A stretch of 64,000 nucleotides of DNA. It comes from a virus. The notes beneath the pieces are model-generated. The model worked only from the letters and a program-made list of their open reading frames with translations, had not been told where the DNA came from and did no database searches. Shown in pieces: positions 1,969 to 42,675 of this stretch; the first letter of the stretch is position 1; each line of letters starts with the position of its first letter. The position numbers were made by a program, and so were the translations under genes. The DNA is taken from positions 41,231 to 105,230 of IMG/VR virus record IMGVR_UViG_3300025150_000006. The stretch is one strand, 5' to 3'.

Positions 1969-4900
1969 TCATCGGCCTCCCCGACCACGAGACGTATTCC
2001 GACTGAGGGCCGAGCGCTGCCGATCTGGGCTAGAACCACCCAGCCGAGTCCGAGCTGATGCCTTGCGCATCATCTTCGCCAGGTCCGTCGGGGTGGGGAT
2101 GTTCCCACGGTGCCCCGGTCGGGTGTCTGTACCTGCAATATACTTTCGCTTACCGATGTGCTGGGTAGCCTCCCAGACCATTCGGACGAGGGCGTCTGAG
2201 TAGTCATCGTACTTGCCAGGTGCATTGGGGGCCTCGACCGTGATGATGTACTTCGAGTGCATCTCCGCCTGAAGTTCCATCATCTCCGCGATGTACTCTG
2301 CGTGCCACTCCCCACCCTCGGTCTCGACCTCGGGAGCGTCGAACAACAGCACCTTGCCCTCGTACATGAGGGTTTTGAAGTTGGCGAAGACCTGACTGGT
2401 GAGCTGCTTCGTGAAGAACACCGACTCACACTGGATCAAACCCTTGTTGTGCAGAGCCGTCTCGAACGGGATACCGGCCCACTGATCAAACAAGCCCTTC
2501 TCGATATAGAACTTCCTCGACAACCCGTGGATCCACGCCGTGATGTCGTCGAACGACAAACGGGTCAGGTTCTTGTAGTTTCCTTCGCCCGCTCGGATGC
2601 GCTCAATGTGGTCGAGCACGATGTTGCTCTGGTAGTCGATATGGCCAATGGCAACCGCGCAGTAGTCACCATCCACCAGACCCGCCGAGATGTCGATGCC
2701 CATGAAGTGGGGGGCTCGGGCCGGAGCCTTGAGTGCAGGGCTGTGACTGTCATCCACACAACGCAACAGAGCATTTGGCTCCAGCCAGCCCTTGGTACGG
2801 TTGGTGAAATCAGCCCCGAACTCGGTGAAGAAGCTGTCCTGGTCCGTCTCATACTCTTCTGCGAGGAACGAAGCCTCCACCGTTGGGTTGACTTCCCAGG
2901 TCGGTGCCTGGATACAGAGCATGTTCTGGGAAGCCAGGCCACCCATGAACCCCTGACGGTACTTCCGATAGAAGAACCCTTGCTTGCCCAGGGGGCTGGA
3001 GATGGACAGGATGCGGCCTTCGACCTTGCCTACTGCTCGACGACGGTTGTTCGGGTCCTTGGGGGAGAAAGCGGCCAGCGAGGGCTTGACAGCTCGGTAG
3101 ATCTTGAGGGCGTCCGACTGCCCTGCATCGTTGAAGTGGGCAAGCTCGTCGAGGATGATGACGATGTTACCAGCACCACGGAGACCCTTGGCGACACAGC
3201 TCTTGAAACTGACCTTGATGGTGGCCTTGGCCGTGGGGTCGTCGGAGTACCGACCGAATCGCTGAATGTCCTCTGGCGACTGGAACTTCGCGTAGGACAT
3301 CGTGTTGTTGGCGGTGTAGGGCTTGTAGAAAGCACAGTTACCTGTGACAATGTTCCCCTCCAGGGTGAACGTCCCATGCCCCTCCACCGTGGCACAAAAC
3401 ACCTCCTCCACCCGATCAGTCGCCTCAACCGACCGGACAGTCCAATACTTGTGGCGCTGCGCCTTCCCACCCCCTGCGGAGAGGAAGTTCTCCCGGTGCT
3501 GCAGAATCACGAAAAAGGACTCATCCAGATGGCTCCGCTGGAGTGCAAGAGAAAACATCGTATGAGGCTGGCCCGTGAGGTTGGACACCCTATCTTCGCG
3601 GCGGATGGTGAACGTCCCAATCCCCAACACGGCGCACACGTCTCGGACAAACAGGAGGTTGGCCTCAACCGCACTGCTAATAATGACCTGACCACCCTTG
3701 GAGCAGGACCCGTCTGCGGCGAAGTAGCCCATCAGCCACCCCAACAGGTAGCTGTGGTTCTCCTCGATGGAGGGCAGTTCCCGGAAGAAGTTTGGCAAGG
3801 CTCCGAAGCGGGTGGCGTTGATGCCAGGCTGGTCCGTCGAGGGGCAAAGAGCAAAGTACGGCTGAAGGTGGGAGTCCTTCTCCCCCACCAAGTTCACCGA
3901 CGTGGCGTGACGCTGACCCTTTGAGGTGCTGCCGTCTCCAAAGGTAAACCCATGGGCGACACCGAAGGGTGAACCCGTCACCTTGTTCTTGTAGCTCCGG
4001 CCGTACACCTGCTGAAGCCGGTGCTTGCCGGGCCGCAATTCCGTGGTCTTGAACTCCCTGTAGCCCTTGCCTCGGTGTGGCTTCCGCTGGTCCAACGTGA
4101 GCCAACGGTGATCCCCCGTGCAGTGAATGACCTTCTCGACTCCTTGCCGGGAAAGCACCAACCTGTAGAGGCGCTGCCTGCCGAAGGACCGCACCGGTGC
4201 TGCTACCCAGGCCCCCTTCCCCGTCAGTACCGTGGGGGTCGTACCCGCCAACTCACCAATGGGTTTGATGCCATCAGCGGTAATCACCTCGGTGTCCCGA
4301 GCGAAACAGTTCGAGAAGTGACCGCTGGCCTCGTTGTACAACAGCCCGGCCTGATCCTTGTCCGTTGCGACCGAGATGAGCTGGATCACGTTCGTCTTGG
4401 GGATGCCGTAATAGAGCTGCGGGTTGTCCTTCAAGATGAGCTTGTAGACCTCGTAGGCCATCACGCAGGCACAGATGAACGTATTGTGGCTAGTCATTCC
4501 ATTGGCGACGAATGACTCCCCGTCGGGCACGTTCAGGTCAAACACCGGATTGACCCCTTCCTTGATGTCCTTCACGGGATCGAAGAAGTAGTCCAGATCC
4601 AACAGGTGCTCAAAGTGAGCGATGACCTCAGGGTCGGCCCCGAGCCCCCGAGCCACTGGCAGCACTTGCTCCAACCGGGGGTAGGTCATCTCGTCCAGGG
4701 CTGCCGGCTTGATCGTGTTGCCCAGTACCTCCCGTAGGGCCGACCGACTCCATGCTTTTTTCTGACCCGGACGGGGATGCACAACGGGCACAGACTCTAA
4801 GAGACGCCGTGCCCAATCCCTCTGATGGGGGATTGACTCGGCATCCCCCCCTTCCTTCCCAGCGGCCTCCAAGGACTGGAGCAGGGGGTCCATTTTCTTC

Positions 4901-6315
4901 CTAGAATCAAACCCCACCCGCTCTGCGAAGCCCCTCCTGTGCCGAAGTCCACGGATGGTCAGAATCCAATAGACATTGCCCTTGATGGTTTTGGGCTTGA
5001 TCCGGCTAACGATGCCCAGATTGAGCAACAGCGTCTGAACTTCCCGAGCAAGACGCCCACTGGCAGTGCTGTAGGATACGATCTTGCCTCCAGACTCGAC
5101 CCCGCCATCCGTCTCAAACAACCCACGCAAAAATGCCTGTACCACGGGACGAGGCGACTGAAGGATGGACCAGGGCACCATCTTGGCATCCCGGTCCGTT
5201 CCCAACCTGAACCCCAAGTCGTGAAGGAACGCCCGCATCCCCACGCTGCCAAACTTGATGGCCCCGGTGTTTTCCGTGCGCTTGTCCATCACCACGGAGT
5301 AACCGCCCAACAAGCCGGTGTAGAGGGCTTTCAGGGTGTCCCACGTCTCGTCATGCTCGACGGTGACCTCGACTCGGCCCTTGTAGTTCCACAGACCATC
5401 CCCCACAAGGTAGCCCAGAAAGCGTCCCCAGTCCTCCGTCAACTTGTCTGGGAACTTCAACTCCCGGTAGCCCGCGGCATTGTGGAAAGGAGTGCAGTCA
5501 ACGTACTCCGACGCCCACAGGTCAGTGTTCCGGTGGATGCACACCACGTCCCCGACTGCCAAATCCGCCAGATAACGCCAAGCCACCACACCTTGCTCAG
5601 TGAGCACCTTGATCCGGTGGTTGTCCGTCCCCCCTAGATGATAGCCACACCGGGTCGTCAGAGTTCGAGTTGCCTTCACCCCACCGTTGTAGAAATAGGC
5701 CGACCGGGACTTTTGAGCCCCCTCCTGAGCCACCCCCACTTCAAGGACTTGAACTTCAGGACCATCTGGGTCGCCCATTTCCTCGATGCGTCGGATGCCC
5801 CCATCCGTCAACACGAGACTGTCCCCGAGAATGCACTTGCCTGAACGACGACCGATGGAAAGCACCAGCTCTCGGCGCTCCTCCCCCGCGATGACCTCAC
5901 TGATGTTGCTGCGACCCTCATTGAACAGGAACCGGAGATACTCAGCCTCCGTCATGTACCGAGGGTTCTCTCGCCGCCAGTCTGTGATCTTGACCCGGAA
6001 CTTGTAGTACCCGGTCTCATCCTCCATCCCAGCCCCTTCAGCGACCACCTCTGCCTCGGAACCACCTTCATCAGGGAGGAAAGCCTGCTCCTTGTAGGCC
6101 GGATGATCTGTGGGGATGGGCTTGTTGAGGTCGAACCCATAGGGGTTGTCGTCGAGAGGGATGCCGTAATGGGCCTTCAAAATCACCCGCTGTACCGGGT
6201 ACAACGGAATGTTGAGTCCCCAGGTGGACTCGACAAACGTGATGATGTCAACCGCCCGATAACCAGACTGCTGTTGCCTGCCGGCTTCGAGGGCGATGTC
6301 CGCCAGGCGACTCAT
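1969..6315 (-). CDS. terL: Terminase large subunit with two inteins
   Basis: Adenine-binding LYPVQ, Walker A GRRSGK|T (split by intein 1), Walker B IIILDE, ISSP coupling motif, nuclease motifs FMGID and DDYSDAL; near the portal. Confidence 0.92.
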   Translation of the reverse strand: MSRLADIALEAGRQQQSGYRAVDIITFVESTWGLNIPLYPVQRVILKAHYGIPLDDNPYGFDLNKPIPTDHPAYKEQAFLPDEGGSEAEVVAEGAGMEDETGYYKFRVKITDWRRENPRYMTEAEYLRFLFNEGRSNISEVIAGEERRELVLSIGRRSGKCILGDSLVLTDGGIRRIEEMGDPDGPEVQVLEVGVAQEGAQKSRSAYFYNGGVKATRTLTTRCGYHLGGTDNHRIKVLTEQGVVAWRYLADLAVGDVVCIHRNTDLWASEYVDCTPFHNAAGYRELKFPDKLTEDWGRFLGYLVGDGLWNYKGRVEVTVEHDETWDTLKALYTGLLGGYSVVMDKRTENTGAIKFGSVGMRAFLHDLGFRLGTDRDAKMVPWSILQSPRPVVQAFLRGLFETDGGVESGGKIVSYSTASGRLAREVQTLLLNLGIVSRIKPKTIKGNVYWILTIRGLRHRRGFAERVGFDSRKKMDPLLQSLEAAGKEGGDAESIPHQRDWARRLLESVPVVHPRPGQKKAWSRSALREVLGNTIKPAALDEMTYPRLEQVLPVARGLGADPEVIAHFEHLLDLDYFFDPVKDIKEGVNPVFDLNVPDGESFVANGMTSHNTFICACVMAYEVYKLILKDNPQLYYGIPKTNVIQLISVATDKDQAGLLYNEASGHFSNCFARDTEVITADGIKPIGELAGTTPTVLTGKGAWVAAPVRSFGRQRLYRLVLSRQGVEKVIHCTGDHRWLTLDQRKPHRGKGYREFKTTELRPGKHRLQQVYGRSYKNKVTGSPFGVAHGFTFGDGSTSKGQRHATSVNLVGEKDSHLQPYFALCPSTDQPGINATRFGALPNFFRELPSIEENHSYLLGWLMGYFAADGSCSKGGQVIISSAVEANLLFVRDVCAVLGIGTFTIRREDRVSNLTGQPHTMFSLALQRSHLDESFFVILQHRENFLSAGGGKAQRHKYWTVRSVEATDRVEEVFCATVEGHGTFTLEGNIVTGNCAFYKPYTANNTMSYAKFQSPEDIQRFGRYSDDPTAKATIKVSFKSCVAKGLRGAGNIVIILDELAHFNDAGQSDALKIYRAVKPSLAAFSPKDPNNRRRAVGKVEGRILSISSPLGKQGFFYRKYRQGFMGGLASQNMLCIQAPTWEVNPTVEASFLAEEYETDQDSFFTEFGADFTNRTKGWLEPNALLRCVDDSHSPALKAPARAPHFMGIDISAGLVDGDYCAVAIGHIDYQSNIVLDHIERIRAGEGNYKNLTRLSFDDITAWIHGLSRKFYIEKGLFDQWAGIPFETALHNKGLIQCESVFFTKQLTSQVFANFKTLMYEGKVLLFDAPEVETEGGEWHAEYIAEMMELQAEMHSKYIITVEAPNAPGKYDDYSDALVRMVWEATQHIGKRKYIAGTDTRPGHRGNIPTPTDLAKMMRKASARTRLGGSSPDRQRSALSRNTSRGRGGR
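3337..4308 (-). mobile_element. Intein TerL-2 (324 aa, LAGLIDADG; Cys1 plus WCT signature)
   Basis: Begins CFARDTEV; block B TGDHRW; block F VFCATV; ends NIVTGN followed by Cys; endonuclease motifs HGFTFGDG and LMGYFAADG. Confidence 0.9.
4483..5835 (-). mobile_element. Intein TerL-1 (451 aa, class 1, LAGLIDADG homing endonuclease)
   Basis: Begins CILGDS directly after Walker A GK and ends FVANGMTSHN followed by Thr; LAGLIDADG motifs FLGYLVGDG and FLRGLFETDG. Confidence 0.93.
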
Positions 6316-7572: not shown

Positions 7573-9834
7573 CTAGAAGTTCCAGCCATCACCGAACAGT
7601 ACGTCCCCGATGTTTTCCGTGACCGAGGGGTCATCCAACTCGACGTTCATCGAGTCACCGAGGTTGAACTCTCCGGGGTTGAACAGTGACGCCGTGATCT
7701 CGTGATCTGAAGCGTTGGCCACCTGGAGCATCTTCCGCTTGAAATCCGCCGCATCCTTCGGGATCTGGTGGAGAAGCTCCTTGCCGTACTTCGTGCAGAC
7801 ACCATTGGCGTTGGCCAACGTGCACCCAGCACATCGGTCCATCGCCTTGACGAACCGAATCTGGTTTGCCCGGTGCAACGACGCGGACTTCTCGCAACCC
7901 GTGGACCCCGTCTTCGACGCATAGGCCTCGGCGTCAACGTAGAGGTGACCCGAAAGCCCCTCGTGCTCGTCACGAAGCATCGCGATGAGACCCTCACCCG
8001 CTGCCCGCAGGGGGCTAGCAAACCGGATGGTCATCAGAGCCGTGAGGTCATCCCCCGCCATCCCCTCGGACATCTTCTGGCGGACCCAGCGGGCCATGCT
8101 CTGGAACTCGGCGACCCGGATTCCACTGGCAGCCGATGCCTGACGCATCGCCTCCTGATCGGCTGCCAGCTTCTTAGGCCTGGGACCCTGCTGGAGAGCC
8201 CGCTTGATGACGGGGCCACCGTACTCCTGAGCTGCCGCCGACCGCTTCATCGCGACCTTGCGAGTGCCCGAGGAGTTGGCGTAGGCCGTGGCCAGCTTGA
8301 GCATCTCCTCAGGAGTGCCCTGCTCTAGGGCCAGACGTGCCTCCTTCTCAGAAAGCTGCCCGGCATCTAGCATCGCTACAACGTGGGCACGAGCCTTGTT
8401 ACCCTGAACCCTGGACAGCTCCGCCTGAGCGAACGCGGTCCACACTTTTCGAACGGCCTGCCGATGAGCGGTGACTCGGGTGCCATCCCCATCGTACTGG
8501 GCCACCTTGGGCATCTGGTTCGCCCGAGCCAGAGATTCGGCAGCCTTGCGGATGGCCTCCGGGCTCGCCTTGGAGTGGCTGAGCTTGAGCACGTCAGCCT
8601 GGGAGATGAGCCCAGCCGCTCCTGCCTTCTGTACGGTCACCAGGGCCGCCTTACGGGCCCTGGCCTGGTCATCCCTGGCAACGACCTGCCGAACTTGGCG
8701 GGGGGCCTCAGCAGCCATCCTCCTGGCCTCTGAGAGGGTCACCCGGTCAGCCGGGCGGACATCCACCGGCTTCACCGAAGCAGTGTGCCCCACCTCACGA
8801 GGTCCAGTCAGGAACGCGAGCTGGAGGGTCTTCTTCGGGTCGCCACCGACGCTGGCCACCTTGTAGCCAGCCGCTGTCAAGTTCGCCGTGTAGATCTTGA
8901 GGGCCTTCTTCCAGGGCACCTCGGAGACCATCTCCATCCCGAGCTTGGCAGCAACCGCCGGATCCTCGGTGAGTACATAGCGAGCGGTACGAGCGACCTT
9001 CCGAAGCTCCTTGGCCCACTTGCCATTCCGCAGACCTGGAAAGGCACTGGCCCGAACAAACACGTTGCCCGCGACTCCGTGATCCGCTGCGATGATGCCT
9101 ACTGCCTTGGATGCCATCTTCTTGTCGAGGTTGGCGTGCAGGTAGTTGGCGATCTCCCCCATCGTCCGACCATAGTGGGACATCCGCACGGCCTTCTTGA
9201 GATGCCAGGAGGCATCCCCAGCATTCTTCCCTACACCAGGCGTCGCGGGACGACCGGACTCGATGGAGTCCTCGTAGTTCGCGATCTCCTTGTCCCGGTT
9301 CGGGACGAGAGCGAGACCATCCGTTCTCCGGTTCACACCCCAGGCCTCCTCCAGCTCGATGGAGGAGTTCAACGGGGGCTTGTCCGGGCGCAACTCCTTG
9401 GGGAGTCGGGCAGGGTCCTGCTCTTGAGTGGGGTCGAGCCAGCTCAGGTCCGCCAGACTGGCAGCGTGCTGCTCAGCAGCAGTCATGTGCAGGCCACCCT
9501 CGTTGGGGGACAGCATATCCCCCAGGTCGAAAACACCCTCGTCCTCGTCTACGAAGGACAGATCCCCAAAGTCATCGGCCTCCTTGGAGTCACCCTCGCC
9601 GCTCATGAGCCCATCGGGAAGAGCGGACATCCCCTTGGTCTGAGCAGGGGTGATGGGGCCTGACATACCACCCAGGTCCCCGTGGTTCCGAAGTCCCTCA
9701 CCCAAGGTCTGGTCGTGATGGAAACCATCAAGGCCATAGTTGGACCCTTCAGTCCAGGTGAAGTCATCCGACGGAAGGTCTGACCCCGCCATGAACGCAT
9801 CCTCCCAAGACGCCTGCTTCTTCTTGGTGCTCAT
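7573..9834 (-). CDS. Large hypothetical head-associated protein (753 aa) with C-terminal Cys cluster
   Basis: Acidic N-terminus, many [KR]xA[AGS] sites (KQAS, KNAG, KVAS, RMAA, KLAA, RQAS), and CEK...CAGC...C near the C-terminus. Confidence 0.75.
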   Translation of the reverse strand: MSTKKKQASWEDAFMAGSDLPSDDFTWTEGSNYGLDGFHHDQTLGEGLRNHGDLGGMSGPITPAQTKGMSALPDGLMSGEGDSKEADDFGDLSFVDEDEGVFDLGDMLSPNEGGLHMTAAEQHAASLADLSWLDPTQEQDPARLPKELRPDKPPLNSSIELEEAWGVNRRTDGLALVPNRDKEIANYEDSIESGRPATPGVGKNAGDASWHLKKAVRMSHYGRTMGEIANYLHANLDKKMASKAVGIIAADHGVAGNVFVRASAFPGLRNGKWAKELRKVARTARYVLTEDPAVAAKLGMEMVSEVPWKKALKIYTANLTAAGYKVASVGGDPKKTLQLAFLTGPREVGHTASVKPVDVRPADRVTLSEARRMAAEAPRQVRQVVARDDQARARKAALVTVQKAGAAGLISQADVLKLSHSKASPEAIRKAAESLARANQMPKVAQYDGDGTRVTAHRQAVRKVWTAFAQAELSRVQGNKARAHVVAMLDAGQLSEKEARLALEQGTPEEMLKLATAYANSSGTRKVAMKRSAAAQEYGGPVIKRALQQGPRPKKLAADQEAMRQASAASGIRVAEFQSMARWVRQKMSEGMAGDDLTALMTIRFASPLRAAGEGLIAMLRDEHEGLSGHLYVDAEAYASKTGSTGCEKSASLHRANQIRFVKAMDRCAGCTLANANGVCTKYGKELLHQIPKDAADFKRKMLQVANASDHEITASLFNPGEFNLGDSMNVELDDPSVTENIGDVLFGDGWNF

Positions 9835-10418
9835 GAAGGGCCTCCCTCGTCCATTTCAGCTTCTTCACCCTCGGCCCAATCCTCGGGGTCTTCCTTGATC
9901 TCATCCACGTCATCCATGATCTGCTGGACCTCTGAACGGGCGCGGGGGTCTCCACCGGAGTCGTTCACGTCGGGATGCCAGTGGATGGCCTTGATCTCAT
10001 CATCGAGTGTATCTGCAATGGAGGACAGAGCCTCATCACAGTTCGAGAGCTGCTTACGGATGTCCTTCACGGGCATCACATAGCCCTTGCCCCCGAGATT
10101 CCCATCAGGAGAGATCCTCTGACTCTTGATCTTCGTGAACGTCGTGCGGGCGGTCTGGATGTGACCAAGCGCCATCAGCACACTGCGGAGGGTCCGAGCA
10201 AGGGGCTCAAGATTCTTGCCGTCGAACTTGTAGTCGGGGTCGATGTTCCGCTCGGAAGAACCAGGTGGGTTCCAGCCCCACTCGTGGTGGTCCCCGCCCC
10301 GATCCTTAATGAACCGGACCTCGCCAGCCGTCTTCGACCGTGTCGGCCGCAAGGCCGCCCGCACGAAACGTGCAGTGACTCGCTCAACGGCTTGTTTCAT
10401 CTGGCGGTTATCGGACAC
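9831..10418 (-). CDS. Hypothetical virion-module protein with RVTARF motif
   Basis: GGAGG RBS and GTG start; N-terminal VERVTARFVRAA...KTAG. Confidence 0.8.
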   Translation of the reverse strand: MSDNRQMKQAVERVTARFVRAALRPTRSKTAGEVRFIKDRGGDHHEWGWNPPGSSERNIDPDYKFDGKNLEPLARTLRSVLMALGHIQTARTTFTKIKSQRISPDGNLGGKGYVMPVKDIRKQLSNCDEALSSIADTLDDEIKAIHWHPDVNDSGGDPRARSEVQQIMDDVDEIKEDPEDWAEGEEAEMDEGGPS

Positions 10419-10454
10419 GAGGGGTTCTCCTCCGGCTTCTACTGGTTCGCTGGT

Positions 10455-10466
10455 ATAGGCTCACTA
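10455..10466 (-). promoter_or_regulatory. Candidate late promoter TRNT-N4-CTAT
   Basis: TAGTgagcCTAT ~37 nt upstream of 10418; the same motif precedes five other genes. Confidence 0.5.
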
Positions 10467-11321
10467 GCGCCCAACCATTGAGGGCTCCAGGTTGAAGTCC
10501 TTCTTCATCAGGTCCCAGTTAACCGAGAACCAACGTCCGGTCCATTCGATGTACCGATGCTGGAGCAGGTACAACACACGAGCAGCGACCGCGATGGGCA
10601 GCAAGGTGAACGTCCCAAATCCGAAGATATTGAGCACCCCACCAAAGGCTGAACCCGGCAGAGAAGCCAGGAAATCAGGGAAAGACATAGCCCCCGTGAC
10701 GGCATCGGTGAGACCCTTGAAATCCCACTCGAACTCCGTGACGTTCATCCACACCCAGATGTAGATGCCCACCATCAACACCCCCATGATGTGAGGAGCG
10801 TGCTGACGTAGCATCTCACCGAAGGAACCCAAGTGGCTGATCCCGGCGTCCAGCACCTTCTTGAGCTTGGGGGACTTGGCCATCAGGCCACTGATCAGGT
10901 CATTGAACGACTTGAGTTTGCCCTTCTCCAGCGTGTAAATGCGCAGGGGCCACGAGTCGAACATCTTGTGGATGAGTCCTCGCAGAGCCTTCTTCGCCTT
11001 CGCGGCCAGGTCCTTGATCGCCCTCGGAATGTCCAGAAGGCTCTTGATGCCGATCAGGTGCTTGAACTTCTCCCAGAGTTGGGGTGCTTTCTTGAACACC
11101 TCTACGAGCTGCTTGAGCTTGCGAATGAGTCCACCGAAAGCCACCCGCCCCTGATACTGAGGCAAGTAGAAGTGCTCTGCAAAGGCAGCCACCACGTCAG
11201 GCGTCAATCCCGACGTGGCCAGGCGTGTGCTTGAGCCGGCACACGCGGCGGTGGCTGCCATACGGACCAGGTAGCGGTCCGCCAGCCGGTCAATTGCCTG
11301 GCGAGCCTGGCCCATCATCAC
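10464..11321 (-). CDS. Hypothetical membrane protein with RLADRY motif
   Basis: N-terminal IDRLADRYLVRMAA; hydrophobic segments IMGVLMVGIYIWVW and GVLNIFGFGTFTLLPIAVAA. Confidence 0.75.
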   Translation of the reverse strand: MMMGQARQAIDRLADRYLVRMAATAACAGSSTRLATSGLTPDVVAAFAEHFYLPQYQGRVAFGGLIRKLKQLVEVFKKAPQLWEKFKHLIGIKSLLDIPRAIKDLAAKAKKALRGLIHKMFDSWPLRIYTLEKGKLKSFNDLISGLMAKSPKLKKVLDAGISHLGSFGEMLRQHAPHIMGVLMVGIYIWVWMNVTEFEWDFKGLTDAVTGAMSFPDFLASLPGSAFGGVLNIFGFGTFTLLPIAVAARVLYLLQHRYIEWTGRWFSVNWDLMKKDFNLEPSMVGR

Positions 11322-11956
11322 ACCTTTAGAGGATTCCCGTCCTCGGTAAACAGTCGCTCGATGACGAACTCGCCACCCTCCTCACGGAACGCCCACAGAT
11401 CCTTGGTCGCCTTGTGCACCAGGTCATTCGAGCCAGTCTTGGACTGCTCGAACATCTCTGAGATGCTACTGAACTCGATGAAGCTCCTCCGTACCTGGTG
11501 AGCCTTCTTCGAGTTGCCAGCCACCCGGCGAAGGTGCTCAGGACTCACCGGCAAGAACTGCCCATCGTCCCAGGCCACCATCACCATCCCGTTATGCACC
11601 GTCACGTCATCACCGTTGGCGTGACGCACGGTGACGACCGTCCCCTTGTCCTCGGGGAGACTGGCGTAGGCCAGTACAGAACCCAAGTTATGGGCGAACG
11701 ACACACGAGTCCCTGCCGTCACAGGGAGCTGGAGAGCATCCGCTGCCCTGGACCGATCGGTCAATGCCCGGAGAGCACTCGTCGAGGAGCCCTCCAGAGT
11801 TCGACCCTGGAGGACGTGGTCGATCATCCCAGTGTCACCCCAGTGGATGTCATCCCCGACCTCGTCACGTCCGGGCAAGAAACTAGCCGTGGCAGCCTGC
11901 TTCTGAACCTTGGGAGGTGCCTGCTCTGCGTCACCAATGAAATCAGTCAGGTCCAT
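11318..11956 (-). CDS. Hypothetical protein (212 aa)
   Basis: GAGG RBS, overlapping coupling with the next gene, KQAA motif near the N-terminus. Confidence 0.75.
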   Translation of the reverse strand: MDLTDFIGDAEQAPPKVQKQAATASFLPGRDEVGDDIHWGDTGMIDHVLQGRTLEGSSTSALRALTDRSRAADALQLPVTAGTRVSFAHNLGSVLAYASLPEDKGTVVTVRHANGDDVTVHNGMVMVAWDDGQFLPVSPEHLRRVAGNSKKAHQVRRSFIEFSSISEMFEQSKTGSNDLVHKATKDLWAFREEGGEFVIERLFTEDGNPLKV

Positions 11957-11964
11957 GGGTCACC

Positions 11965-13224
11965 TCACGCGATCCGAGTTGCTTGCCACTCAACCGTCAT
12001 GGTCTGGTTGGTGGCAAAATTGATGGTGAACCCAGTGGCCAACTTGCCCGTGATCCACGGGGTTTCATCATTGGCAGGCTGCGAAGGAACTTCGAGATGC
12101 ACCTGGTAGACCGCATCCGACATGGGAACATCGAACGACACCGCTACCGTGGTGGCAGCCCCGAAGACCGCAGACCCGGTCTGGGTGGGGAGGTCCAACA
12201 CGGCACCGGCGGCAGGTGCCGTGATCGCTGCAATGGATGTGTTCCGGGCCGTGCAAGTCACGGTCTCGGTCACGAGCAACTCCGCCATCGAGCAGTTGTG
12301 GAACTGGAACGTCTGGTTACCCGACAAGGTCACGGCGGGGAGGACTGTGCCCTCAACGAACAAAGTTCCAGACCCGGCCAGATCCACTGCAAAAGGTGTA
12401 GCGAGACCAGTGTTCTCCGCGATCGCCCCGCAGTCGATGATCCGATAGGTGCCCTCCCCTGAAAAAGGAACGTCGTTGGCCGTGTCGAACCGAAGGTCAA
12501 TGGCCCCCACGCCCTGGACGTAGGACAAACGAAAAGTGCCCACTTCCTGGATGAGCAACAGACCCAGGTCTGCTGCTTCCCCCCACTGGCCCCCGGTGAC
12601 GATCAGGTTCTCGACCGCCGTCGCCCAGATGTTCCGGGTGCCACCAGCCGAGTCGGCACTCAGGTCACAGTCCTTGATCACGATGCCCGAGGACCCCACC
12701 GTCGAGGCTGCAGCACCAATCACTCGGATGCACGCCTTGTTGGTGTGGACGTTCGTGATGGTGAACCCCTGGATGAGGATCGAGAGAGGGATGGTCCCAA
12801 ACTGAGCCGAGATGATGACCGTGTGGTCAGCACCAGGGGCATCGGGAGTCGCTTCGAGAACGGACTCAATAGTGGGGTGGCCCAAGCCAACCAGGCGAAC
12901 GCCATCACGGACGATGTTGACCGTCTCGGTATAGACCCCTGGCAGCACCAGGATGAGGTAGGGATTCGCCGAGGAGGCCGATGTAGGCACCACGTCAAGG
13001 GCTGACTGGATGGTGGTGTACGCCGCCCCGGCTCCACTCTTGCCGACCACCAACACGTTGGTGATGGCGTTCAACCCAGCAAGCTGGGACAGAGTGAGGG
13101 GGCTTGTGATGATCGTGTCTTGGAACGCGAGCCCACCCGTGCCAGCGTCACGGCTGATACGTCGAGTCCCGGCGGAGCCGGGCTCAATGTCAATCTGGTC
13201 GATGAGGAATGGAGCTTGCGCCAT
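11965..13224 (-). CDS. Virion protein with pectin-lyase-like beta-helix and C-terminal beta-sandwich (tailspike/fibre-like)
   Basis: VVGKSGAGAAYTTIQSALD...ILVLPGVYTETV is the typical entry to a pectinesterase-type beta-helix; C-terminal VSFDVPMSDAVYQV...TGFTI domain. Confidence 0.7.
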   Translation of the reverse strand: MAQAPFLIDQIDIEPGSAGTRRISRDAGTGGLAFQDTIITSPLTLSQLAGLNAITNVLVVGKSGAGAAYTTIQSALDVVPTSASSANPYLILVLPGVYTETVNIVRDGVRLVGLGHPTIESVLEATPDAPGADHTVIISAQFGTIPLSILIQGFTITNVHTNKACIRVIGAAASTVGSSGIVIKDCDLSADSAGGTRNIWATAVENLIVTGGQWGEAADLGLLLIQEVGTFRLSYVQGVGAIDLRFDTANDVPFSGEGTYRIIDCGAIAENTGLATPFAVDLAGSGTLFVEGTVLPAVTLSGNQTFQFHNCSMAELLVTETVTCTARNTSIAAITAPAAGAVLDLPTQTGSAVFGAATTVAVSFDVPMSDAVYQVHLEVPSQPANDETPWITGKLATGFTINFATNQTMTVEWQATRIA

Positions 13225-13227
13225 CGG

Positions 13228-13833
13228 TTACCTCACCTGACCTTGATACTTGTGGAGCGTGGTCCGCACGTACTGCCGGATGTCCTTGGCCATCTGGGCG
13301 TAAGGGCCATTTCCCCCGCCATCAAACTCTGTCTCTTCCACCAGGTCGTCCAGGATCTGGGCGGCCTCCAACCCCTTGGAAGCATAACTCTCCAGAGCCT
13401 GCTTGAGCTTGGCCCTGTACTGTCCTGCCCCGGCGAGCCGAGTAGTGGCATACCTTCCCTTGCGAAGGACACCCTTGGCGGCAAGTTGACAGAACAGGCC
13501 AACCCGCATCCGGCGATTCATCAAAATCGGGCTCCCTGACCGACTCATCTTCAGGTAGGCATCCAACCCCTTCTCATCCGCTGTCACACCGCGAAGACGA
13601 CTGGCTTCCTCTCCGAGAAGGGCTGACATCGTATCACGGTCGTAGCCCATCTTGCGTGCTTCCTCACGGAAGACGTTGATGCCCCAGTCGGAGAGTTCCC
13701 CCTGGTTATACCGATCGGGATCACGACCGAAATCCGCCAACATCATCTTGGCGGTCCCAATCAACCCCAGGGGGGATGCGAGCACTCGAAGGGCTAGTTT
13801 GTCTATCCGTGCTTCGTTCATCTTGTTCCTCAC
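13228..13833 (-). CDS. Hypothetical protein (201 aa)
   Basis: Coupled to both neighbours; N-terminal IDKLALRVLAS variant motif. Confidence 0.7.
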   Translation of the reverse strand: MRNKMNEARIDKLALRVLASPLGLIGTAKMMLADFGRDPDRYNQGELSDWGINVFREEARKMGYDRDTMSALLGEEASRLRGVTADEKGLDAYLKMSRSGSPILMNRRMRVGLFCQLAAKGVLRKGRYATTRLAGAGQYRAKLKQALESYASKGLEAAQILDDLVEETEFDGGGNGPYAQMAKDIRQYVRTTLHKYQGQVR

Positions 13834-14519
13834 ACGAACACATCGTAGCCAACCAGCACAGGTGAGCCAGCCGCTGGAACGTGCCCCAACGTGATGGTGA
13901 ACCCCGTCTTGAGCTTGGTCACGGTCGGGACATAGGCGTCGAAGAACCCCTGAGGTGCCAACAGCACTCGGTAGTTCGTCGTGGACAGCGGAGTGGTGAA
14001 CACCACTGCCTTGGACCCAGCATCGGTGTCTGCGATGGACACCGTACCTGACAGGTCACTGGTGCCCGACGTCTTGACGAGCACCGAGTAGCCCACCGTC
14101 TTGGGAGCCGCCAGGGTGCCGTAGACCGTTGCAGCCTCAACCGTGAACCCAGTTGTGGTCCAGCCCGAAGTGATGAGCAACGTCGAGTCAGGGATGGTGA
14201 GCACCACCCGATAGTTCGTGTTGTTCAGCACCCCCGGCGGGATGACTACAGCCTGACTTGTCTGCCCCGTGAACACCACGTTACCCGACTCGACCTCTGT
14301 CTCCAGTTGAAGCAAGGTGACGAGTTCGGTGGCCGCCTTGATGTCGGCCATCACGGTCGCGGACATCGCGGTGTACGGGTCACAGATCCCGCCGGTCGGT
14401 GTGCGGATGTTCCGCACCGACACCACACCCTGTGCATCCACCACGACGTCGAAGTAGTAGGACTGCGACCCCGAGGTGGACTTGTAGGTGTGAACCGACT
14501 GTTGGCGGGTGAGGGCCAT
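13830..14519 (-). CDS. Virion structural protein with two tandem beta-sandwich repeats
   Basis: AVVIPPGVLNNTNYRVVL...TGFTV and AVVFTTPLSTTNYRVLL...TGFTI; Thr/Val-rich. Confidence 0.72.
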   Translation of the reverse strand: MALTRQQSVHTYKSTSGSQSYYFDVVVDAQGVVSVRNIRTPTGGICDPYTAMSATVMADIKAATELVTLLQLETEVESGNVVFTGQTSQAVVIPPGVLNNTNYRVVLTIPDSTLLITSGWTTTGFTVEAATVYGTLAAPKTVGYSVLVKTSGTSDLSGTVSIADTDAGSKAVVFTTPLSTTNYRVLLAPQGFFDAYVPTVTKLKTGFTITLGHVPAAGSPVLVGYDVFV

Positions 14520-14522
14520 CGA

Positions 14523-16493
14523 CTACAGCCCCAGGGCTGTGTTAATCGCCCTACGATCAAAAGAAGTCACCCCGGACTCGAACTGCATTACCCGGCCATC
14601 ATAGTAACCAAAGAGGATCTCCTTGCCTCGACTCTTCTTGGTCACATAGAGACGCCTGCCCTTCCATACCGAGGATGCCGTGAATCCAGCATCCTGAACA
14701 GCCTCCAGACCCTCCTGGAGAGAAAGAGAAGCAGCCGTCCGCTGAGCACGCAGCTCGGCGAGACGAGACGAAGTTGAAGCAATCCTCAGCTTCAGCACTG
14801 CCACGCCCATGCTGCCGTGAGCCAGTGAGACACCATAATCCCTCTTGAACAGGATCCACTTCGCCTGTCCCTGAAGGACCGGAGCACCATCCACGATGGG
14901 GAAGAGCTGCTTGCTGTACACGTTATACTTCTCGGAGTACGTCGTGCGTCCCACCATGAACTCTTGCTCACCTGCCTCATAGGTAGACTTGTAGGTGATG
15001 AACAGACGCTTGCCCTTGGTCAGGCCGTCGTACTGACTGTCCGACATGAGTGTGGCCAGATGAGCATTGTTCTCCTCAGGAGAAGCGAACAGCCTCATCT
15101 TCGGGACCTCAGAGCCCTGATAGGCCATGACGAAGTAGGCATTGTACTTGTAGGCGGACCACTTGCCCGTGTCAGAAGTGAGCTTGGCTACCACCCCATG
15201 GTAGTTGAACTTGGCAAGGGCCTGGATGAGCACCTTGCGAGTCTTCGCGGCCACTTCCTTGGCTTGATCGTTGGTGGCACCCGGAGACAGAAGACCTTCG
15301 ATGACGAAACCTTCTGCACGGTAAGGGACACCATCAGGTGTGATGGTGTTTTCCCTTTCATGTCCCCAGGCCTCAATCGGACCGGCACCAAGTCCTGACC
15401 TCTTCAGGGTGGCTGCCATCAACTTGTAGATGGCAGCCGCTGCCCCCGCAAAGTCCTTGTTTGCCGACCGACGCTTGGCCTCCCGGTCCATGATTGGGGC
15501 CAAGATCCTATGAGCTGCCTGTGCTTGTGCCTGTGCTGCTCGAATCACTTCCTGAGTCGTCCCCTCAGTTTCAACTGAGAGCCACTTGGACCCAGTGGTT
15601 GCCTTCAGGAACTCCTCACTCCACTTGGGCTGGAGATAGTAGCTGTAGCTGGCCTTGAGCGAATCCTGGGAGGGACCCCACTGATGGATCTCAATCTGGA
15701 TCTCGGTTGGCCCACCGCCGATGCTGGGGAGCGTTGGGACCTCAATCTCGGCCTTGCCTGAAAGCCCACCCGTATGATTGGGAGTCACCTTGAACTTGCT
15801 CACCCGACCACCGAGAGCTTTTGCAGCGGCGTCCGACCAGGCACGCAGTGCCGGAGTGACCTGGCTATCATCACCGGCGGTCTTGCCCTTGAACTGATCC
15901 ATCTCGGCCTGGACCTTGGCCATCCTGGCCAACAATGCTGTTCGGTTCACGGTTGCTTCCTTGTTCTTGTACTTCGAGCGGTCCACCCCTCCGGGCCAAC
16001 GCTGCTGAACATACTTCTTGTTGTACTCGCTCTTCTCATCCAGCTCACCAGCGAGCCTCTCATCACCACAGGCGCAGGTGGCGTGGCGCTGAAGGAGCGG
16101 GATGATGAACTGGCGGGACTCGGGAACCTCCGAGGCGACCCGTAGAAGGGCTTGCTTGATCGTGCCCGCTTGCTTGTGCTGTGCCCAAAACAAGTCGGAC
16201 TCTTCTTTTGCCTTCGCTATGACCGCTTGGGCCTTTTGAGCACCAAGCGGCGTGAGCTGCATGTTGAGGGGGTAGTCCATGTCGATGACCACCCCGCCCC
16301 TACCTGCATTGATATAGCCCTTCTTCAAGAGGGCTATTGCTAGACGCGGTGGGATCCCCGAATCCCGGATGGTCCATTCATTGTGGTCTCTCGGCGGGTC
16401 CACTTTGAACTTCTTGACGTCAGCCTTGTACAACCGAACAAGGGCTTCATCGATCGTTCGTACAGGACTGGCCGCTTGCTTGATCGTGCTCAT
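14523..16493 (-). CDS. Modular hypothetical protein (656 aa), candidate processed polyprotein
   Basis: Unrelated-looking blocks separated by KQAA, KQAG, RLAG, KTAG, RIAS, RTAA. Confidence 0.75.
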   Translation of the reverse strand: MSTIKQAASPVRTIDEALVRLYKADVKKFKVDPPRDHNEWTIRDSGIPPRLAIALLKKGYINAGRGGVVIDMDYPLNMQLTPLGAQKAQAVIAKAKEESDLFWAQHKQAGTIKQALLRVASEVPESRQFIIPLLQRHATCACGDERLAGELDEKSEYNKKYVQQRWPGGVDRSKYKNKEATVNRTALLARMAKVQAEMDQFKGKTAGDDSQVTPALRAWSDAAAKALGGRVSKFKVTPNHTGGLSGKAEIEVPTLPSIGGGPTEIQIEIHQWGPSQDSLKASYSYYLQPKWSEEFLKATTGSKWLSVETEGTTQEVIRAAQAQAQAAHRILAPIMDREAKRRSANKDFAGAAAAIYKLMAATLKRSGLGAGPIEAWGHERENTITPDGVPYRAEGFVIEGLLSPGATNDQAKEVAAKTRKVLIQALAKFNYHGVVAKLTSDTGKWSAYKYNAYFVMAYQGSEVPKMRLFASPEENNAHLATLMSDSQYDGLTKGKRLFITYKSTYEAGEQEFMVGRTTYSEKYNVYSKQLFPIVDGAPVLQGQAKWILFKRDYGVSLAHGSMGVAVLKLRIASTSSRLAELRAQRTAASLSLQEGLEAVQDAGFTASSVWKGRRLYVTKKSRGKEILFGYYDGRVMQFESGVTSFDRRAINTALGL

Positions 16494-16499
16494 TGGATC

Positions 16500-16808
16500 T
16501 CACCAGATTCCGGTCGTTTCGAAGCCACGCTTCTCAAACCACTGACCAAGGGCCATCAAGCCGTCGTGATCCTTGGACCACAGCTCCAGGCCATCAAAAC
16601 TGGAAGCGACACCGAGGTCCGCAACACGCGGAACACCCTTCATCGCGACCTTGCCGTCACGGAACGAGTAGAGCAGACTCGCCAAGTTACGGATTTCCTG
16701 TGCACCGTACAGCACACGAATCCGATACTCCGGGAACGAGACCTCACGGAGCCACCTTTCGGCGACCCGTTTCGTCATCAGCACCTGGTTTTTGGACTCA
16801 TTCTTCAT
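16500..16808 (-). CDS. Hypothetical protein with RVAERW motif
   Basis: 102 aa; MTKRVAERWL near the N-terminus. Confidence 0.75.
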   Translation of the reverse strand: MKNESKNQVLMTKRVAERWLREVSFPEYRIRVLYGAQEIRNLASLLYSFRDGKVAMKGVPRVADLGVASSFDGLELWSKDHDGLMALGQWFEKRGFETTGIW

Positions 16809-18090: not shown

Positions 18091-19489
18091 TTTCCTGATC
18101 GAGGTCCAGGATGGTCTGGTGGAGCATCAGTGCGAAGTTCGCAGGTGTGATAACTGACGATGACTTGCTCCGGTTGCCAACCACGCTCAGATCCCGCTTG
18201 ATGGAGGCCGGTCCGCGCTCGGCGGCCACCCAGGCGGCGTCCTGGTCAGGAACCATACCAAGGTCCGGCGAACTTCCCTGCATGTCTGGAACCGAAAAAC
18301 GTGGTTCCTGTGGAACCGCACCCTGAACAGGGACTTGATCAAGGGTCTTCACTGGAAGTGCGGGTGTCGGCGCGGATACGGAAACACCCGTGGCCTGCAC
18401 TTGAAGCACCGCCACGGGATCACGAACAGAACCTCCAACGTGATGCAAATGGGCGAGGTCCATCAGCAACATCGCAGCGGTTGGCCTACCCGGCCGGGCA
18501 GCAAAACGTGAAGCAAACCCCAAGAGCTTGGACCCCAGTGATCCACCCAAGGCCACCAACCGTTCCTTGCCCCAATGGGCTGGGACAGATTCCCCAAGAG
18601 ATGCCTGAAAGGCCAACATCGACACTTCGGCCAACCTGTCATAACAGGTGGCCGGAGAAGCCCTCTCCATGATCCTCCGGGCCGCCTCAAATGCCGCAGG
18701 GAGGTTGGTCCCGATCGCGTCAAGGAGATCCAGATAGGCGGTGTTCAGATCCAGGTGAAGGTACTTCTCGACGTGCTCTCGGGTGACCCCTCCAAGCATA
18801 GAGACACCCTCGATAGCCTTGAGGGCATCGCGGATGTGGCACTCGGTGATCTCGGCCACCAGGGTGAGCATCTCGGGCTCGAAAGAGATGTTCTCCTGCT
18901 CGCAGATGTGCTGGAGCCGGTCTGCAATGAGCTGTGGCTGCATTGGTTGAATCACGAAGGCTGGGGCACAACGTGAAAGCACCGTGGCCCTCATCCGCTC
19001 GGGCTCGGTCGTGCAGAAGATGCAGGTGAGCTGCTTGTCCTCAGACCCCGGCATCGTGTCTTCAAGGGGCTTCAGCAGTGCATCCAGAGCATCCTTCGAT
19101 AGCTGGTGAGCCTCGTCAAAGAGATAGATCCGACGTTTACCTGAGAAGGTGCTGTACTGGATCTCCTCCTTGATCTTGTTCACGTCTCCCTTGCCCGAGT
19201 GGGTTGCCGCATCCACCTCCATGAAATCCAAGGAGGTGCCGTGCTCTAGCAACCCTTTGCATGAATGGCATTCATCACAGGGCTCCCCGTCCTGTGTGTT
19301 CTCACAGAGCAGAGCACGGGCCAAGATACGACCCAAGGTGGTCTTACCTCGGCCGCGTTCTCCGCAGAACAGGTAGGATTGCCGGAACCCCCGCCCCTGT
19401 ACAACGTACTGCTTCAGGATGGTGATGGTGGCGTCTTGCCCCAACACATCACTGTAGCGGTAGGGACGGTACTTGATGTCGAGACTCAC
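18068..19489 (-). CDS. dnaX: DNA polymerase III gamma/tau clamp-loader subunit
   Basis: KYRP..VLGQ, Walker A GERGRGKT, Zn module C..PCDECHSC, DEAH, ALLKPLE, SRC motif; GGAGG RBS. Confidence 0.93.
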   Translation of the reverse strand: MSLDIKYRPYRYSDVLGQDATITILKQYVVQGRGFRQSYLFCGERGRGKTTLGRILARALLCENTQDGEPCDECHSCKGLLEHGTSLDFMEVDAATHSGKGDVNKIKEEIQYSTFSGKRRIYLFDEAHQLSKDALDALLKPLEDTMPGSEDKQLTCIFCTTEPERMRATVLSRCAPAFVIQPMQPQLIADRLQHICEQENISFEPEMLTLVAEITECHIRDALKAIEGVSMLGGVTREHVEKYLHLDLNTAYLDLLDAIGTNLPAAFEAARRIMERASPATCYDRLAEVSMLAFQASLGESVPAHWGKERLVALGGSLGSKLLGFASRFAARPGRPTAAMLLMDLAHLHHVGGSVRDPVAVLQVQATGVSVSAPTPALPVKTLDQVPVQGAVPQEPRFSVPDMQGSSPDLGMVPDQDAAWVAAERGPASIKRDLSVVGNRSKSSSVITPANFALMLHQTILDLDQESGDGGSP

Positions 19490-26438: not shown

Positions 26439-27428
26439 CTATGAGGCCCCTTCGGCTTCCAAGTACAGAATCAAGCGCTCCCGTACTGCATCAAACAGGT
26501 CCATCTCACGGACCTCCGTGATGAGAGGTTTCCCGCTGCCACCCACCAATGTGGCCTTCACCGAGTCCACGAAAGCGTCCACAGTCATCGTCCGAGCCTC
26601 TAACTTGGTACGGCCCTCGATGTCGAACACCTCAATCGCTGGTCGAACAGCCAACTCCCGTCGCTCCACCGTGACCCCATCCTCATCAAAACGAAGGATG
26701 GCAACCTCAGGGATGCGTTTCACGTCGTCCTCAGACAACGCTCCACGGGTCAAGCTCCCGATGTTGACGATGTGCTTGCCGTTACGCTCATAGACCCCCT
26801 GATTCTTGTGCCAGTGCCCGAAGCACCAGACGTCAGGATCCAGGTCGATGATGTCCTGGTACTTGACGATGTCCTCGCTCCCGAACATCTCCCCACCCGC
26901 CTGACTGGCCAGCAGGTGAGCCATCACGACCAGGTAGTCCTCACCACCCTTGGTGATGGTCGTGAGCCGGTTCATGTCGTAGACCTTGCCGTGGTAGGGC
27001 ACACCCACGACCCGGACTTTCAGATTCGAACGAAAACCCTGTTCAGGCATCGGCTGGAACGTGACACCCTTGTCCTCATCAACCAGATTGAACACACCCG
27101 TCGAGAGAAGCACGCCGAGAGGAGCCTCGTTGAGGAAGGCCCCATCCCCGTACTTCACGTCGTGGTTGCCATTCCGCAAGGAGTAGACCTTGCAGGGGTA
27201 CTTCGCGTGGACCTCGGCTACCCGCTGGATCAGCTCGTGTGTGGTGCGGCTCGGCGTCTTGATGTGAAAGAAGTCACCGCCGTCGAGGACGGCATCCGCG
27301 TCCACTTCACGGGCGATTTCACCCACCTGAGTGAGCTTGTCGAGAACCGTCTCAGCCCAGTCATCGGTCCTCGACTGCGGAGACTTGTCCGCCAGGTGAA
27401 CATCCGTTCGCCAGACTAGCGTGATCAT
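26439..27428 (-). CDS. SbcD/Mre11-like metallophosphoesterase nuclease
   Basis: TDVH, GGDFFH, GNHD, MAH, GHWH, GSL motifs; start revised to MITLVW. Confidence 0.9.
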   Translation of the reverse strand: MITLVWRTDVHLADKSPQSRTDDWAETVLDKLTQVGEIAREVDADAVLDGGDFFHIKTPSRTTHELIQRVAEVHAKYPCKVYSLRNGNHDVKYGDGAFLNEAPLGVLLSTGVFNLVDEDKGVTFQPMPEQGFRSNLKVRVVGVPYHGKVYDMNRLTTITKGGEDYLVVMAHLLASQAGGEMFGSEDIVKYQDIIDLDPDVWCFGHWHKNQGVYERNGKHIVNIGSLTRGALSEDDVKRIPEVAILRFDEDGVTVERRELAVRPAIEVFDIEGRTKLEARTMTVDAFVDSVKATLVGGSGKPLITEVREMDLFDAVRERLILYLEAEGAS

Positions 27429-29671: not shown

Positions 29672-29685
29672 TCCCTATCCTACCC

Positions 29686-32421: not shown

Positions 32422-32526
32422 GTGACTTCTCCTAAGCGAGCCGGGTTTTCCGTTGTCCTAAGTGCTTGGACGGTGACCCGCATTATGGTTGTTCTACTCT
32501 CTACCCAAGAGACCGGACCCCCCCCA

Positions 32527-41116: not shown

Positions 41117-41188
41117 GAGACAGACCTGCCCCCTTTCTCCCGCCCTATCAACTCCCTACCGAAAAACCTGACCCCCCGAACTTCGGGG

Positions 41189-42157: not shown

Positions 42158-42675
42158 CAGCGTCTTCTTGGCTCCAACAACTCGAAAATGATCTCTCCGT
42201 CGGGGGCCATCTTCAAGTTCACCCTGAAAGGCATCTGTCCCAGTTGCTGGGCAACCTCGCCCAACACCTTCTCCACACTGAGACGGGCCTGGTGCAAAAT
42301 CCCAGCATCCCGCTTCTGACCGATGAACGGGACCAAACACTCAACCACCTTGTCCCCCATCGTCTGCCGCAACCACTGCCGACTCAGACTCCGAATCTTC
42401 GCAGACATCACGGCCGGAGGTTGCCGAGGGATCTCAGGCAACAACAGCCCCGGAGACAACAGATTGTCCAGACTCACGGCCTCCTGAGCGGACAGGACCT
42501 TGTCTACCGCACGATCAAAACGCTTGGTCAGATCCTTCTCGGACAAATCCACCAGGTGGGCCGCCCAGTGATCTTGGTCATAGCCAGGCGGGCGGGGCTC
42601 CATCCGGGACAAAGTCATCGCCATCTCAGCGTGATGCTTGATCCGGCTGTCCAGTTCATTGGAACTGATCGTCAT
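42157..42675 (-). CDS. Hypothetical protein
   Basis: Start revised to MTISS; overlapping couplings on both sides. Confidence 0.65.
   Translation of the reverse strand: MTISSNELDSRIKHHAEMAMTLSRMEPRPPGYDQDHWAAHLVDLSEKDLTKRFDRAVDKVLSAQEAVSLDNLLSPGLLLPEIPRQPPAVMSAKIRSLSRQWLRQTMGDKVVECLVPFIGQKRDAGILHQARLSVEKVLGEVAQQLGQMPFRVNLKMAPDGEIIFELLEPRRR

Follow-up and report, generated by a model that had tools for sequence, protein, structure and literature searches.

Why should proteins that have nothing else in common carry the same short peptide? The question is raised by a 64,000-nucleotide stretch of viral DNA, here called the window, which comprises bases 41231–105230 of one 105,230-base virus contig (IMG/VR record IMGVR_UViG_3300025150_000006). 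An earlier note on this DNA had picked out a motif, R-[VL]-[AT]-x-R-[YFW], in several of its proteins, usually near the N-terminus, and had suggested that it is a portable address tag by which proteins are loaded into the prohead, to be cut off there like the capsid targeting sequence (CTS) of phage T4. Our analysis strongly supports the portability of the tag: a single orthologous family is tagged at its N-terminal end, its C-terminal end or both, and the tag lies at module borders whether the modules are fused or encoded separately. The tag is probably a portable docking helix of about 10–15 residues with the core (R)-[VLI]-A-x-[RK]-[YWF]-[LVIM], often followed by alanine, arginine or lysine. 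Its function is best read as loading into the capsid, after which the head protease would remove the tag, and this is a reading that we favour with some confidence on the basis of gene context and the absence of the tag from replication proteins. All gene calls are based on open reading frames (ORFs) and were made in this analysis; those for other genomes include shadow ORFs.

A peptide shared by unrelated proteins

The five strict examples of the motif given in the earlier note were all recovered where it had placed them, and all are on the minus strand, as are all the real genes of the window (positions are those of the window unless the contig is named). A protein of 195 amino acids (aa; 9831–10418) carries RVTARFV at residues 13–19 (10362–10382), a 285-aa protein (10464–11321) carries RLADRYL at residues 12–18 (11268–11288; 29.7 bits in the position matrix introduced below) and a 102-aa protein (16500–16808) carries RVAERWL at residues 14–20 (16749–16769; 25.2 bits), each N-terminal. 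In a 439-aa protein (44956–46275), which would have 475 aa if read from 46383 and contains five [KR]-x-A-[SG] sites against 1.0 expected, the tag RLAARYL (46132–46152; 19.9 bits) is again near the N-terminus; the start at 46275, which is supplied with a GAGGAG ribosome-binding site, places RLAARY at residue 42. The remaining copy, RVAHRYI (59525–59545; 27.6 bits), is internal. It belongs to a 470-aa tandem-domain protein (58862–60274) whose halves align at E=1e-23, and it occupies the joint, so that the order is domain 1, tag, QKSAGG, domain 2, with each domain copy opening Q-K-x-A. The placement of this copy in the linker ahead of the second domain is thus borne out. Ten residues of the same protein, TRVAHRYIQA, recur identically at residues 728–737 of a 2115-aa protein encoded after the portal gene.

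These matches are far more numerous than composition would predict. The pattern R[VL][AT].R[YFW] occurs five times in the window, compared with 0.15 expected and a maximum of 3 in 2000 composition-preserving shuffles, and eight times in the 105-kb contig (0.23 expected). A position matrix trained on instances selected by this regular expression finds 15 sites of at least 10 bits in the contig, with 1.0 expected. Three strict copies lie in the contig beyond the window, two of them between domains of the 2115-aa protein and the third at the extreme C-terminus of a 147-aa protein; an 819-aa protein has a lysine variant of the tag at its C-terminal end, where its orthologue ends in a 30-bit copy. 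Two looser variants had also been proposed, and they fared differently. VTRLAHGF, here RLAHGFL from residue 582 of a 1026-aa protein (57151–57171; 10.2 bits), is probably a real if degenerate tag, whereas IDKLALRV, here KLALRVL at residues 12–18 of a 201-aa protein (protein 13228–13833; variant 13780–13800; 6.1 bits), is uncertain because 20 sites reach 6.1 bits with 5 expected; a search for an orthologue of the 201-aa protein in which to check it found none. A further tag-like sequence, RLAKPYM (11.8 bits), is present in a 916-aa protein (53041–55791), and the N-terminal RKIAERA of the portal, which had looked similar, was rejected at −17 bits. The contig encodes 10–15 carriers, which share no similarity beyond the tag, and Pfam and PHROG searches with most of them returned no family matches.

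Since the motif was defined after seeing the data, its replication on independent DNA weighs more than its frequency here. We therefore turned to 47 related IMG/VR loci, found via the portal (52–84% identity) and ranging in guanine plus cytosine (GC) content from 0.33 to 0.67. They contain about 60 strict matches against about 2.5 expected, at N-termini, at C-termini and inside giant post-portal proteins. The complete genome of an uncultured 485-kb phage (LR745208.1), which shares 83% identity with the contig in the major capsid protein, has 17 matrix sites with 1.2 expected; the ribonucleotide reductase motif IVASKYF and a match in a PIN/PhoH protein were recognised as false positives of the matrix in that genome. 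Cultured, more distant relatives are Tunturiibacter phage Tunturi_5 (309 kb; capsid protein 48% identical) and Bacillus phage G (498 kb; 40%), and these three identities mark the contig as a fragment of a phage-G-like huge phage. Matrix scans of the Tunturi_5 and phage G genomes gave no match and one match without enrichment, respectively, so the tag is specific to a sub-clade. Within that clade we count 50 distinct strict instances. The impression that the tag is usually near the N-terminus survives only in part, since 24 of 102 clade tags are N-terminal, 16 are C-terminal and 62 (61%) are internal. A literature search found no published description of the motif.

Could the motif nevertheless be a chance or compositional artefact of a high-GC proteome rich in arginine, alanine and valine, or the shadow of a DNA signal? 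Its post hoc definition and the abundance of arginine, alanine, valine and leucine at 59% GC would favour such an explanation. However, the excess is at least 30-fold over composition-preserving shuffles, it replicates in independent loci including relatives at 42–48% GC, and the residues are conserved at aligned positions in orthologues. The codons of the tag vary synonymously, which places the conservation at the level of the peptide and rules out a DNA element as its source. Replication, orthologue conservation and codon variation together already refute the artefact, to which we attach practically no weight.

The positions of the motif that were left unconstrained have preferences of their own. 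Across the 50 instances a hydrophobic residue follows the aromatic, then alanine, arginine or lysine, and serine or alanine tends to stand two to three residues before the first arginine. Orthologues of the 102-aa protein retain V/L/I-A-x-R-W-L, and the first arginine varies among them (R, S, K or A), leaving [VLI]-A-x-[RK]-[YWF]-[LVIM] as the hard core. Valine, alanine, the aromatic and leucine fall at i, i+1, i+4 and i+5, the arginines at i−1 and i+3 and further basic residues one turn later, a pattern that is that of a basic amphipathic helix, as judged from the sequence. The AlphaFold model of the 195-aa protein, built from 86 sequences, has a helix at residues 3–23 that contains the tag, with a predicted local distance difference test (pLDDT) score of 83–87, then a segment at residues 27–36 with pLDDT below 50 and after it a helical bundle. 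A Foldseek search of this model against the PDB gave no match beyond a generic helical bundle.

Tags at either end and the K-x-A sites

The 195-aa protein is the founding member of a family with 476 homologues at E≤1e-5. Of the best 120 of these, 39 have the tag only at the N-terminus, 23 only at the C-terminus, 39 at each end and 18 at neither, and the swap from one end to the other can be seen directly among syntenic orthologues with 46–77% identity in the core. On the N side the layout runs from the tag through 8–15 residues to [KR]-[TVM]-A-G, the invariant EVRFIKDRGGD, the helical core and an acidic tail; on the C side the tail is followed by K-[TMLQ]-A-[SG], often doubled, then 5–12 residues, the C-terminal tag and the stop. 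In the protein of the window the candidate protease site is K-T-A-G at residues 29–32 (10323–10334), in the disordered linker between tag and core, and the segment of low pLDDT covers it together with the first of the invariant residues. Because this layout mirrors about the core, where a bipartite binding motif would keep one order, we infer that K-x-A acts to separate the tag from the core; the evidence for mirrored sites is dominated by this family. The model predicts disorder (pLDDT below 50) for the most invariant stretch of the family, residues 31–47 (AGEVRFIKDRGGD..W), which resembles a further peptide for binding or processing more than an element of the fold.

Dual tagging also brings to mind a scheme in which the helices bind each other and multivalent carriers cross-link into an internal protein body, with no separate receptor. 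It would draw on the 39 doubly tagged members among the best 120, on the tandem-doubled tags of three related loci (L025, L040 and L044) and on polyproteins with three to five tags. Only about two turns are conserved, however, with neither heptad continuation nor the length of a coiled coil, and the net positive charge of the helix disfavours pairing. Self-binding of this kind, which would in any case be one form of capsid loading and no real alternative to it, seems to us very unlikely.

Sites of the form [KR]-x-A-[SG] are in excess in this proteome as a whole (91–93 observed, 47–50 expected, z about 6), and within 20 residues of a tag their density is 3–6 times the background. A few proteins account for the concentration, namely the 916-aa protein (9 sites, 2.2 expected), a 753-aa protein encoded at 7573–9834 (9, 2.0), an acidic 537-aa protein of the head block (7, 1.3) and those of 475, 253, 656 and 147 aa. 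Across ten relatives the acidic protein has 2–8 sites, and 4–8 in most, and the capsid and 212-aa proteins of the same ten have none. A K-L-A-A-S near the N-terminus of the capsid protein was considered as a cut site and ruled out, both because the protein has no propeptide and because this part of the N-arm is conserved in Tunturi_5 and partly in phage G. The linker of the 285-aa protein is of low complexity and contains a conserved [KR]-x-A-[ST], which is RLAT here and RMAS or KRAS in orthologues. The core of this protein has two membrane-helix-like segments; long and hydrophobic, they recall ejection proteins that make a channel in the envelope of the host. The 1026-aa protein (55834–58914) begins with a C39-like peptidase domain (residues 33–167), which is followed by a triple site, TKTASVKTAGVDRQAS.

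Similar sites surround the presumed head protease itself. The protein matches phrog_18299 (E=3.8e-13), shares 46% identity with Tunturi_5 gp331, an annotated head maturation protease, and is encoded in conserved synteny between the portal and capsid genes. In nine of nine orthologues there is an invariant R-x-A at residues 25–27 and an invariant K-A-A-S right after the conserved catalytic domain, beyond which the sequence is hypervariable, a pattern typical of self-processing. H126, H131 and S182 are also invariant. PDB sequence and profile searches with the protease were empty, and the AlphaFold model from nine sequences (pLDDT only 41.7) is too poor to recognise a herpesvirus/HK97-type protease fold with its catalytic serine and histidine. 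At the N-termini of the portals, too, a [KR]-x-A is kept about 15 residues before the conserved core.

The proximity of tags and sites might mean that the tag is an exosite recruiting the head protease to its substrates, or is itself a strong cleavage site, and is no address at all. The tag opens with [KR]-x-A, R-V-A-S fits the site, 22 of the 102 tags match the site pattern outright and the sites cluster near tags. Against this, the residue after the alanine in tags is often aspartate, leucine, histidine, methionine, glutamate or arginine rather than serine or glycine, about two-thirds of tags have no nearby site, the 102-aa family having none at all, and the periodicity is helical, whereas protease substrates bind in an extended form. 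A mirrored layout with sites on the core side of each tag instead fits the removal of a separate element. The chance that recruitment or cleavage is the whole function of the tag is, in our view, slim.

Head genes, possible cargo and a candidate receptor

In the direction of transcription the head block consists of the intein-bearing terminase, the portal, a DNA methylase, the 2115-aa protein, 253-aa and 288-aa proteins, the head-maturation protease, the acidic 537-aa protein, a 212-aa protein and the capsid protein (phrog_2522, E=2e-48), and from the portal onwards this order is kept in ten relatives and in the 485-kb genome. A tagged polyprotein thus stands among the portal, protease, acidic protein and capsid genes. 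The large terminase subunit (1969–6315) anchors this late block in the window, and the portal gene lies just beyond the left edge. The region with the first three tags (9831–16808) lies between a sigma-factor gene on its upstream side and the terminase just downstream; its gene order is found again in the 485-kb genome, where the 753-aa gene also adjoins the 195-aa gene as it does here. In Tunturi_5 a syntenic protein in the head context has been annotated by the depositors as a DNA ejection protein.

In the giant post-portal protein the tag borders modules that elsewhere are separate genes. The 2115-aa protein combines a CCA/poly(A)-type nucleotidyltransferase head (Pfam PolyA_pol, E=3e-13) with a topoisomerase IB core (E=3e-25), and its relatives add 2H/LigT modules. 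In L025 the 2H/LigT module stands alone as a C-terminally tagged gene of 212 aa, and in L026 it belongs to a protein of 707 aa. The topoisomerase module comes first in a 1592-aa gene of L014, which has an N-terminal tag, and is internal in the 2094–2806-aa proteins of L008–L010. A tag directly precedes the nucleotidyltransferase module in L026, L027, L028 and L042, and a site and a tag come after the C39-like peptidase domain in L017, in L019 and in the genome of 485 kb. No MuF domain was found in the 2115-aa protein with Pfam; the tags may replace the MuF anchor of polyvalent proteins.

It had been remarked in the earlier note that the motif is not seen at the starts of replication genes, and this observation holds more widely. 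A site of at least 11 bits is absent from all 19 of the replication, packaging or shell proteins that could be identified; they are the class II ribonucleotide reductase, a RecD2-like helicase, RecA, an SbcC/SbcD-like pair, a PD-(D/E)XK nuclease, the clamp, two clamp-loader proteins, primase, an SNF2 helicase, the sigma factor, a Cpn60 chaperonin, a metallopeptidase, the terminase, the methylase, the portal, the protease and the capsid protein. As far as sequence allows, then, the motif is not equally frequent in non-virion proteins; by protein count alone the contrast is modest (0 of 19 versus about 10 of 63). A clamp-binding or chaperonin-substrate motif was dropped as an explanation because no replication protein carries the tag.

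The tag might instead dock its carriers to a common partner other than the capsid, such as a cytoplasmic phage or host hub (the phage chaperonin, for example), a replication or defence compartment, or the membrane, the head neighbourhood being incidental. Most tags of the 485-kb relative are outside the head block, most carriers have no recognisable function, and a basic amphipathic helix with an aromatic could bind membranes or nucleic acid. On the other hand, tagging is densest in the protein encoded between portal and protease, and the K-x-A beside the tags also flanks the domain of the head protease and abounds in the acidic protein that resembles a scaffold. Near-invariant alanine and arginine in orthologues moreover point to a specific protein groove rather than to membrane or DNA binding. 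We regard a non-capsid partner as unlikely.

Several points weigh against capsid loading followed by cleavage. Only about 5–6 of the 17 tags of the 485-kb genome are inside the 40-kb head block, most tagged genes being outside it. The proteome-wide enrichment of sites is uneven, z being about 6 here and 9 in G002 and falling to 2.2, 1.1 and 0.5 in W01, Tunturi_5 and G001. The protease has been assigned via its PHROG match, synteny and an annotated homologue, and the matrix has five core columns that are fixed by construction. The proposal that the tag is removed at a [KR]-x-A site in the manner of the T4 CTS has good circumstantial support in the K-[TM]-A-[SG] on both sides of the 195-aa core, the flanks of the protease domain and the contrast between the site-rich acidic protein and the site-free capsid protein; it is weakened by the fact that only about one-third of tags have a [KR]-x-A-[SG] within 20 residues and those of the 102-aa family have none.

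A possible receptor of the tag is the acidic 537-aa protein (contig 28656–30269, minus strand), which lies between the head protease and capsid genes and consists of 25% aspartate plus glutamate. It has a duplicated N-terminal PGYGVEDQDHPAH motif and a conserved C-terminal ELSxLWASxPDVS, and could be a scaffold. It also matches Pfam EF-hand_1 (E=9e-9), and ten of ten orthologues keep both loops, although the acidic sequence around them is hypervariable. The acidic proteins encoded at the syntenic place in Tunturi_5 and phage G have no such loops; these genomes share capsid, portal and protease with the clade and are likewise without the tag. It is tempting to picture the receptor as a calmodulin-like EF-hand pair and the tag as a calmodulin-target-type helix with an aromatic anchor, in which case loading would be switchable by calcium and undone by the protease at [KR]-x-A, but we consider this version doubtful.

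For capsid loading as a whole we envisage the following scheme. A clade of phage-G-like huge phages would equip unrelated accessory proteins, and every module of a giant multi-enzyme protein, with a docking helix. In the assembling prohead a single common receptor would bind this helix, and the tagged enzymes would thereby be co-assembled as cargo; candidates for such cargo are topoisomerase IB, the CCA-type nucleotidyltransferase, 2H phosphoesterases, the C39-like peptidase and the membrane-helix protein. The head-maturation protease would then cut at nearby [KR]-x-A-[S/G], releasing the modules from one another and from the tags, in the way that T4 deals with its CTS, and the freed proteins may be ejected together with the DNA. 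If this is correct, a single tag of about ten residues defines the proteins that a large, uncultured clade of huge phages carries in its capsid and delivers to the host. The injected ‘first-strike’ proteome could then be read from sequence and would include topoisomerase IB, RNA-end-modifying enzymes, peptidases and 2H phosphoesterases of the type that counters the cyclic oligonucleotide-based anti-phage signalling system (CBASS). The packaging of giant polyvalent proteins without a MuF anchor would also be explained.

Further features of the contig and its relatives deserve mention. In the 485-kb relative a doubly tagged 497-aa protein (LR745208.1, 347195–348688) has a 2H/LigT phosphoesterase domain with a weak match to Acb1, an anti-CBASS protein, which hints that some tagged cargo counters host cyclic-nucleotide defence. 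The C-terminal end of the 147-aa protein, which is helical (contig 18844–19287, minus strand), consists of a GGGG linker, the tag and LRGG-stop; the resemblance of LRGG to the C-terminal tetrapeptide of ubiquitin-like proteins is probably due to chance, the 485-kb orthologue continuing past it. The 288-aa protein just upstream of the protease (contig 31774–32640, minus strand) has in every relative a tag-like helix (RVAQAYV, RVASAYI, RIADRWV) that is fused to a conserved ALYWAxKDR and a zinc ribbon; here the helix looks like part of a folded domain. Identity across the clade is 82–97% for the capsid protein (contig 26905–27831), compared with 57–84% for the portal (40699–42393) and 42–77% for the protease, and such strong conservation would fit a hub with many interaction partners. 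Four essential genes, all on the minus strand, are interrupted by inteins with LAGLIDADG endonuclease domains, at 1969–6315, 27425–29671, 37079–41116 and 47956–53031; the hosts are the large terminase, an SbcC/Rad50-like ATPase, the class II ribonucleotide reductase and the SNF2 helicase. Next to the tagged proteins of 470 aa and 1026 aa a Cpn60/GroEL-type chaperonin is encoded (61523–62995; Pfam E=1e-41). At the three codon positions GC is about 0.61/0.43/0.74 in this DNA, and sister contigs of the same size are 22–27% complete by CheckV-type estimates.

Comparison with known systems

Phage polyvalent proteins whose genes adjoin that of the portal are presumed to undergo packaging and injection (Iyer, Burroughs, Anand, de Souza, Aravind 2017; PMC5512222). 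The 2115-aa protein resembles them as a giant multi-enzyme protein beside the portal, and 2H phosphoesterase, nucleotidyltransferase and peptidases are common to both. It differs in having no MuF domain detectable with Pfam, in the tag that recurs at its module borders, nothing of which kind is described in PMC5512222, and in that the same tag is also found on stand-alone genes. A second precedent is provided by the ejection proteins of phiKZ and SPN3US, which are loaded into the heads of giant phages and trimmed by the prohead protease, their propeptides being thought to act in targeting (PMC5694885, PMC10052503). Those propeptides, from an unrelated phage lineage, are N-terminal, 20–160 residues long and cut at A/S/G-x-E, and no common short motif has been reported for them.

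The closest parallel in outline is the CTS that T4's internal proteins IPI–III and Alt carry and that prohead protease gp21 cuts off (Mullaney and Black 1996, summarised in PMC5694885). In both cases a short peptide is shared by otherwise unrelated accessory proteins encoded with the head genes, and a protease motif (a candidate motif here) stands between the peptide and the mature protein, in keeping with loading first and cutting afterwards. The cleavage specificities are different, gp21 cutting after glutamate at L/I-x-E sites (PMC5694885) and the candidate site here being [KR]-x-A-[S/G]. Nor does the CTS resemble the tag consensus R-V-A-x-R-[YWF]-L in sequence. The CTS, a leader of 10–20 residues, is strictly N-terminal, whereas the tag is found at the N-terminal end, at the C-terminal end or internally and also punctuates giant polyproteins, so that it would amount to a position-independent loading signal. 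Loading and cleavage are proven for T4 and putative here.

Position independence has counterparts outside phages. The cargo-loading peptides of encapsulins and bacterial microcompartments are short, are joined to either terminus by a flexible linker and send diverse enzymes into a protein shell; those of microcompartments are amphipathic helices, and encapsulin shells have the HK97 fold, like phage capsids. The sequences and shells are different and the peptides are not known to be removed by a protease; the analogy is one of mechanism only. A helix that docks within a capsid is also known from staphylococcal phage 80alpha. Although that case involves two proteins, the C-terminus only and the control of capsid size rather than the loading of enzymes, the 80alpha scaffold and CpmB of SaPI1 are non-homologous proteins that share the same capsid-binding C-terminal helix and dock with it inside an HK97-fold capsid protein.

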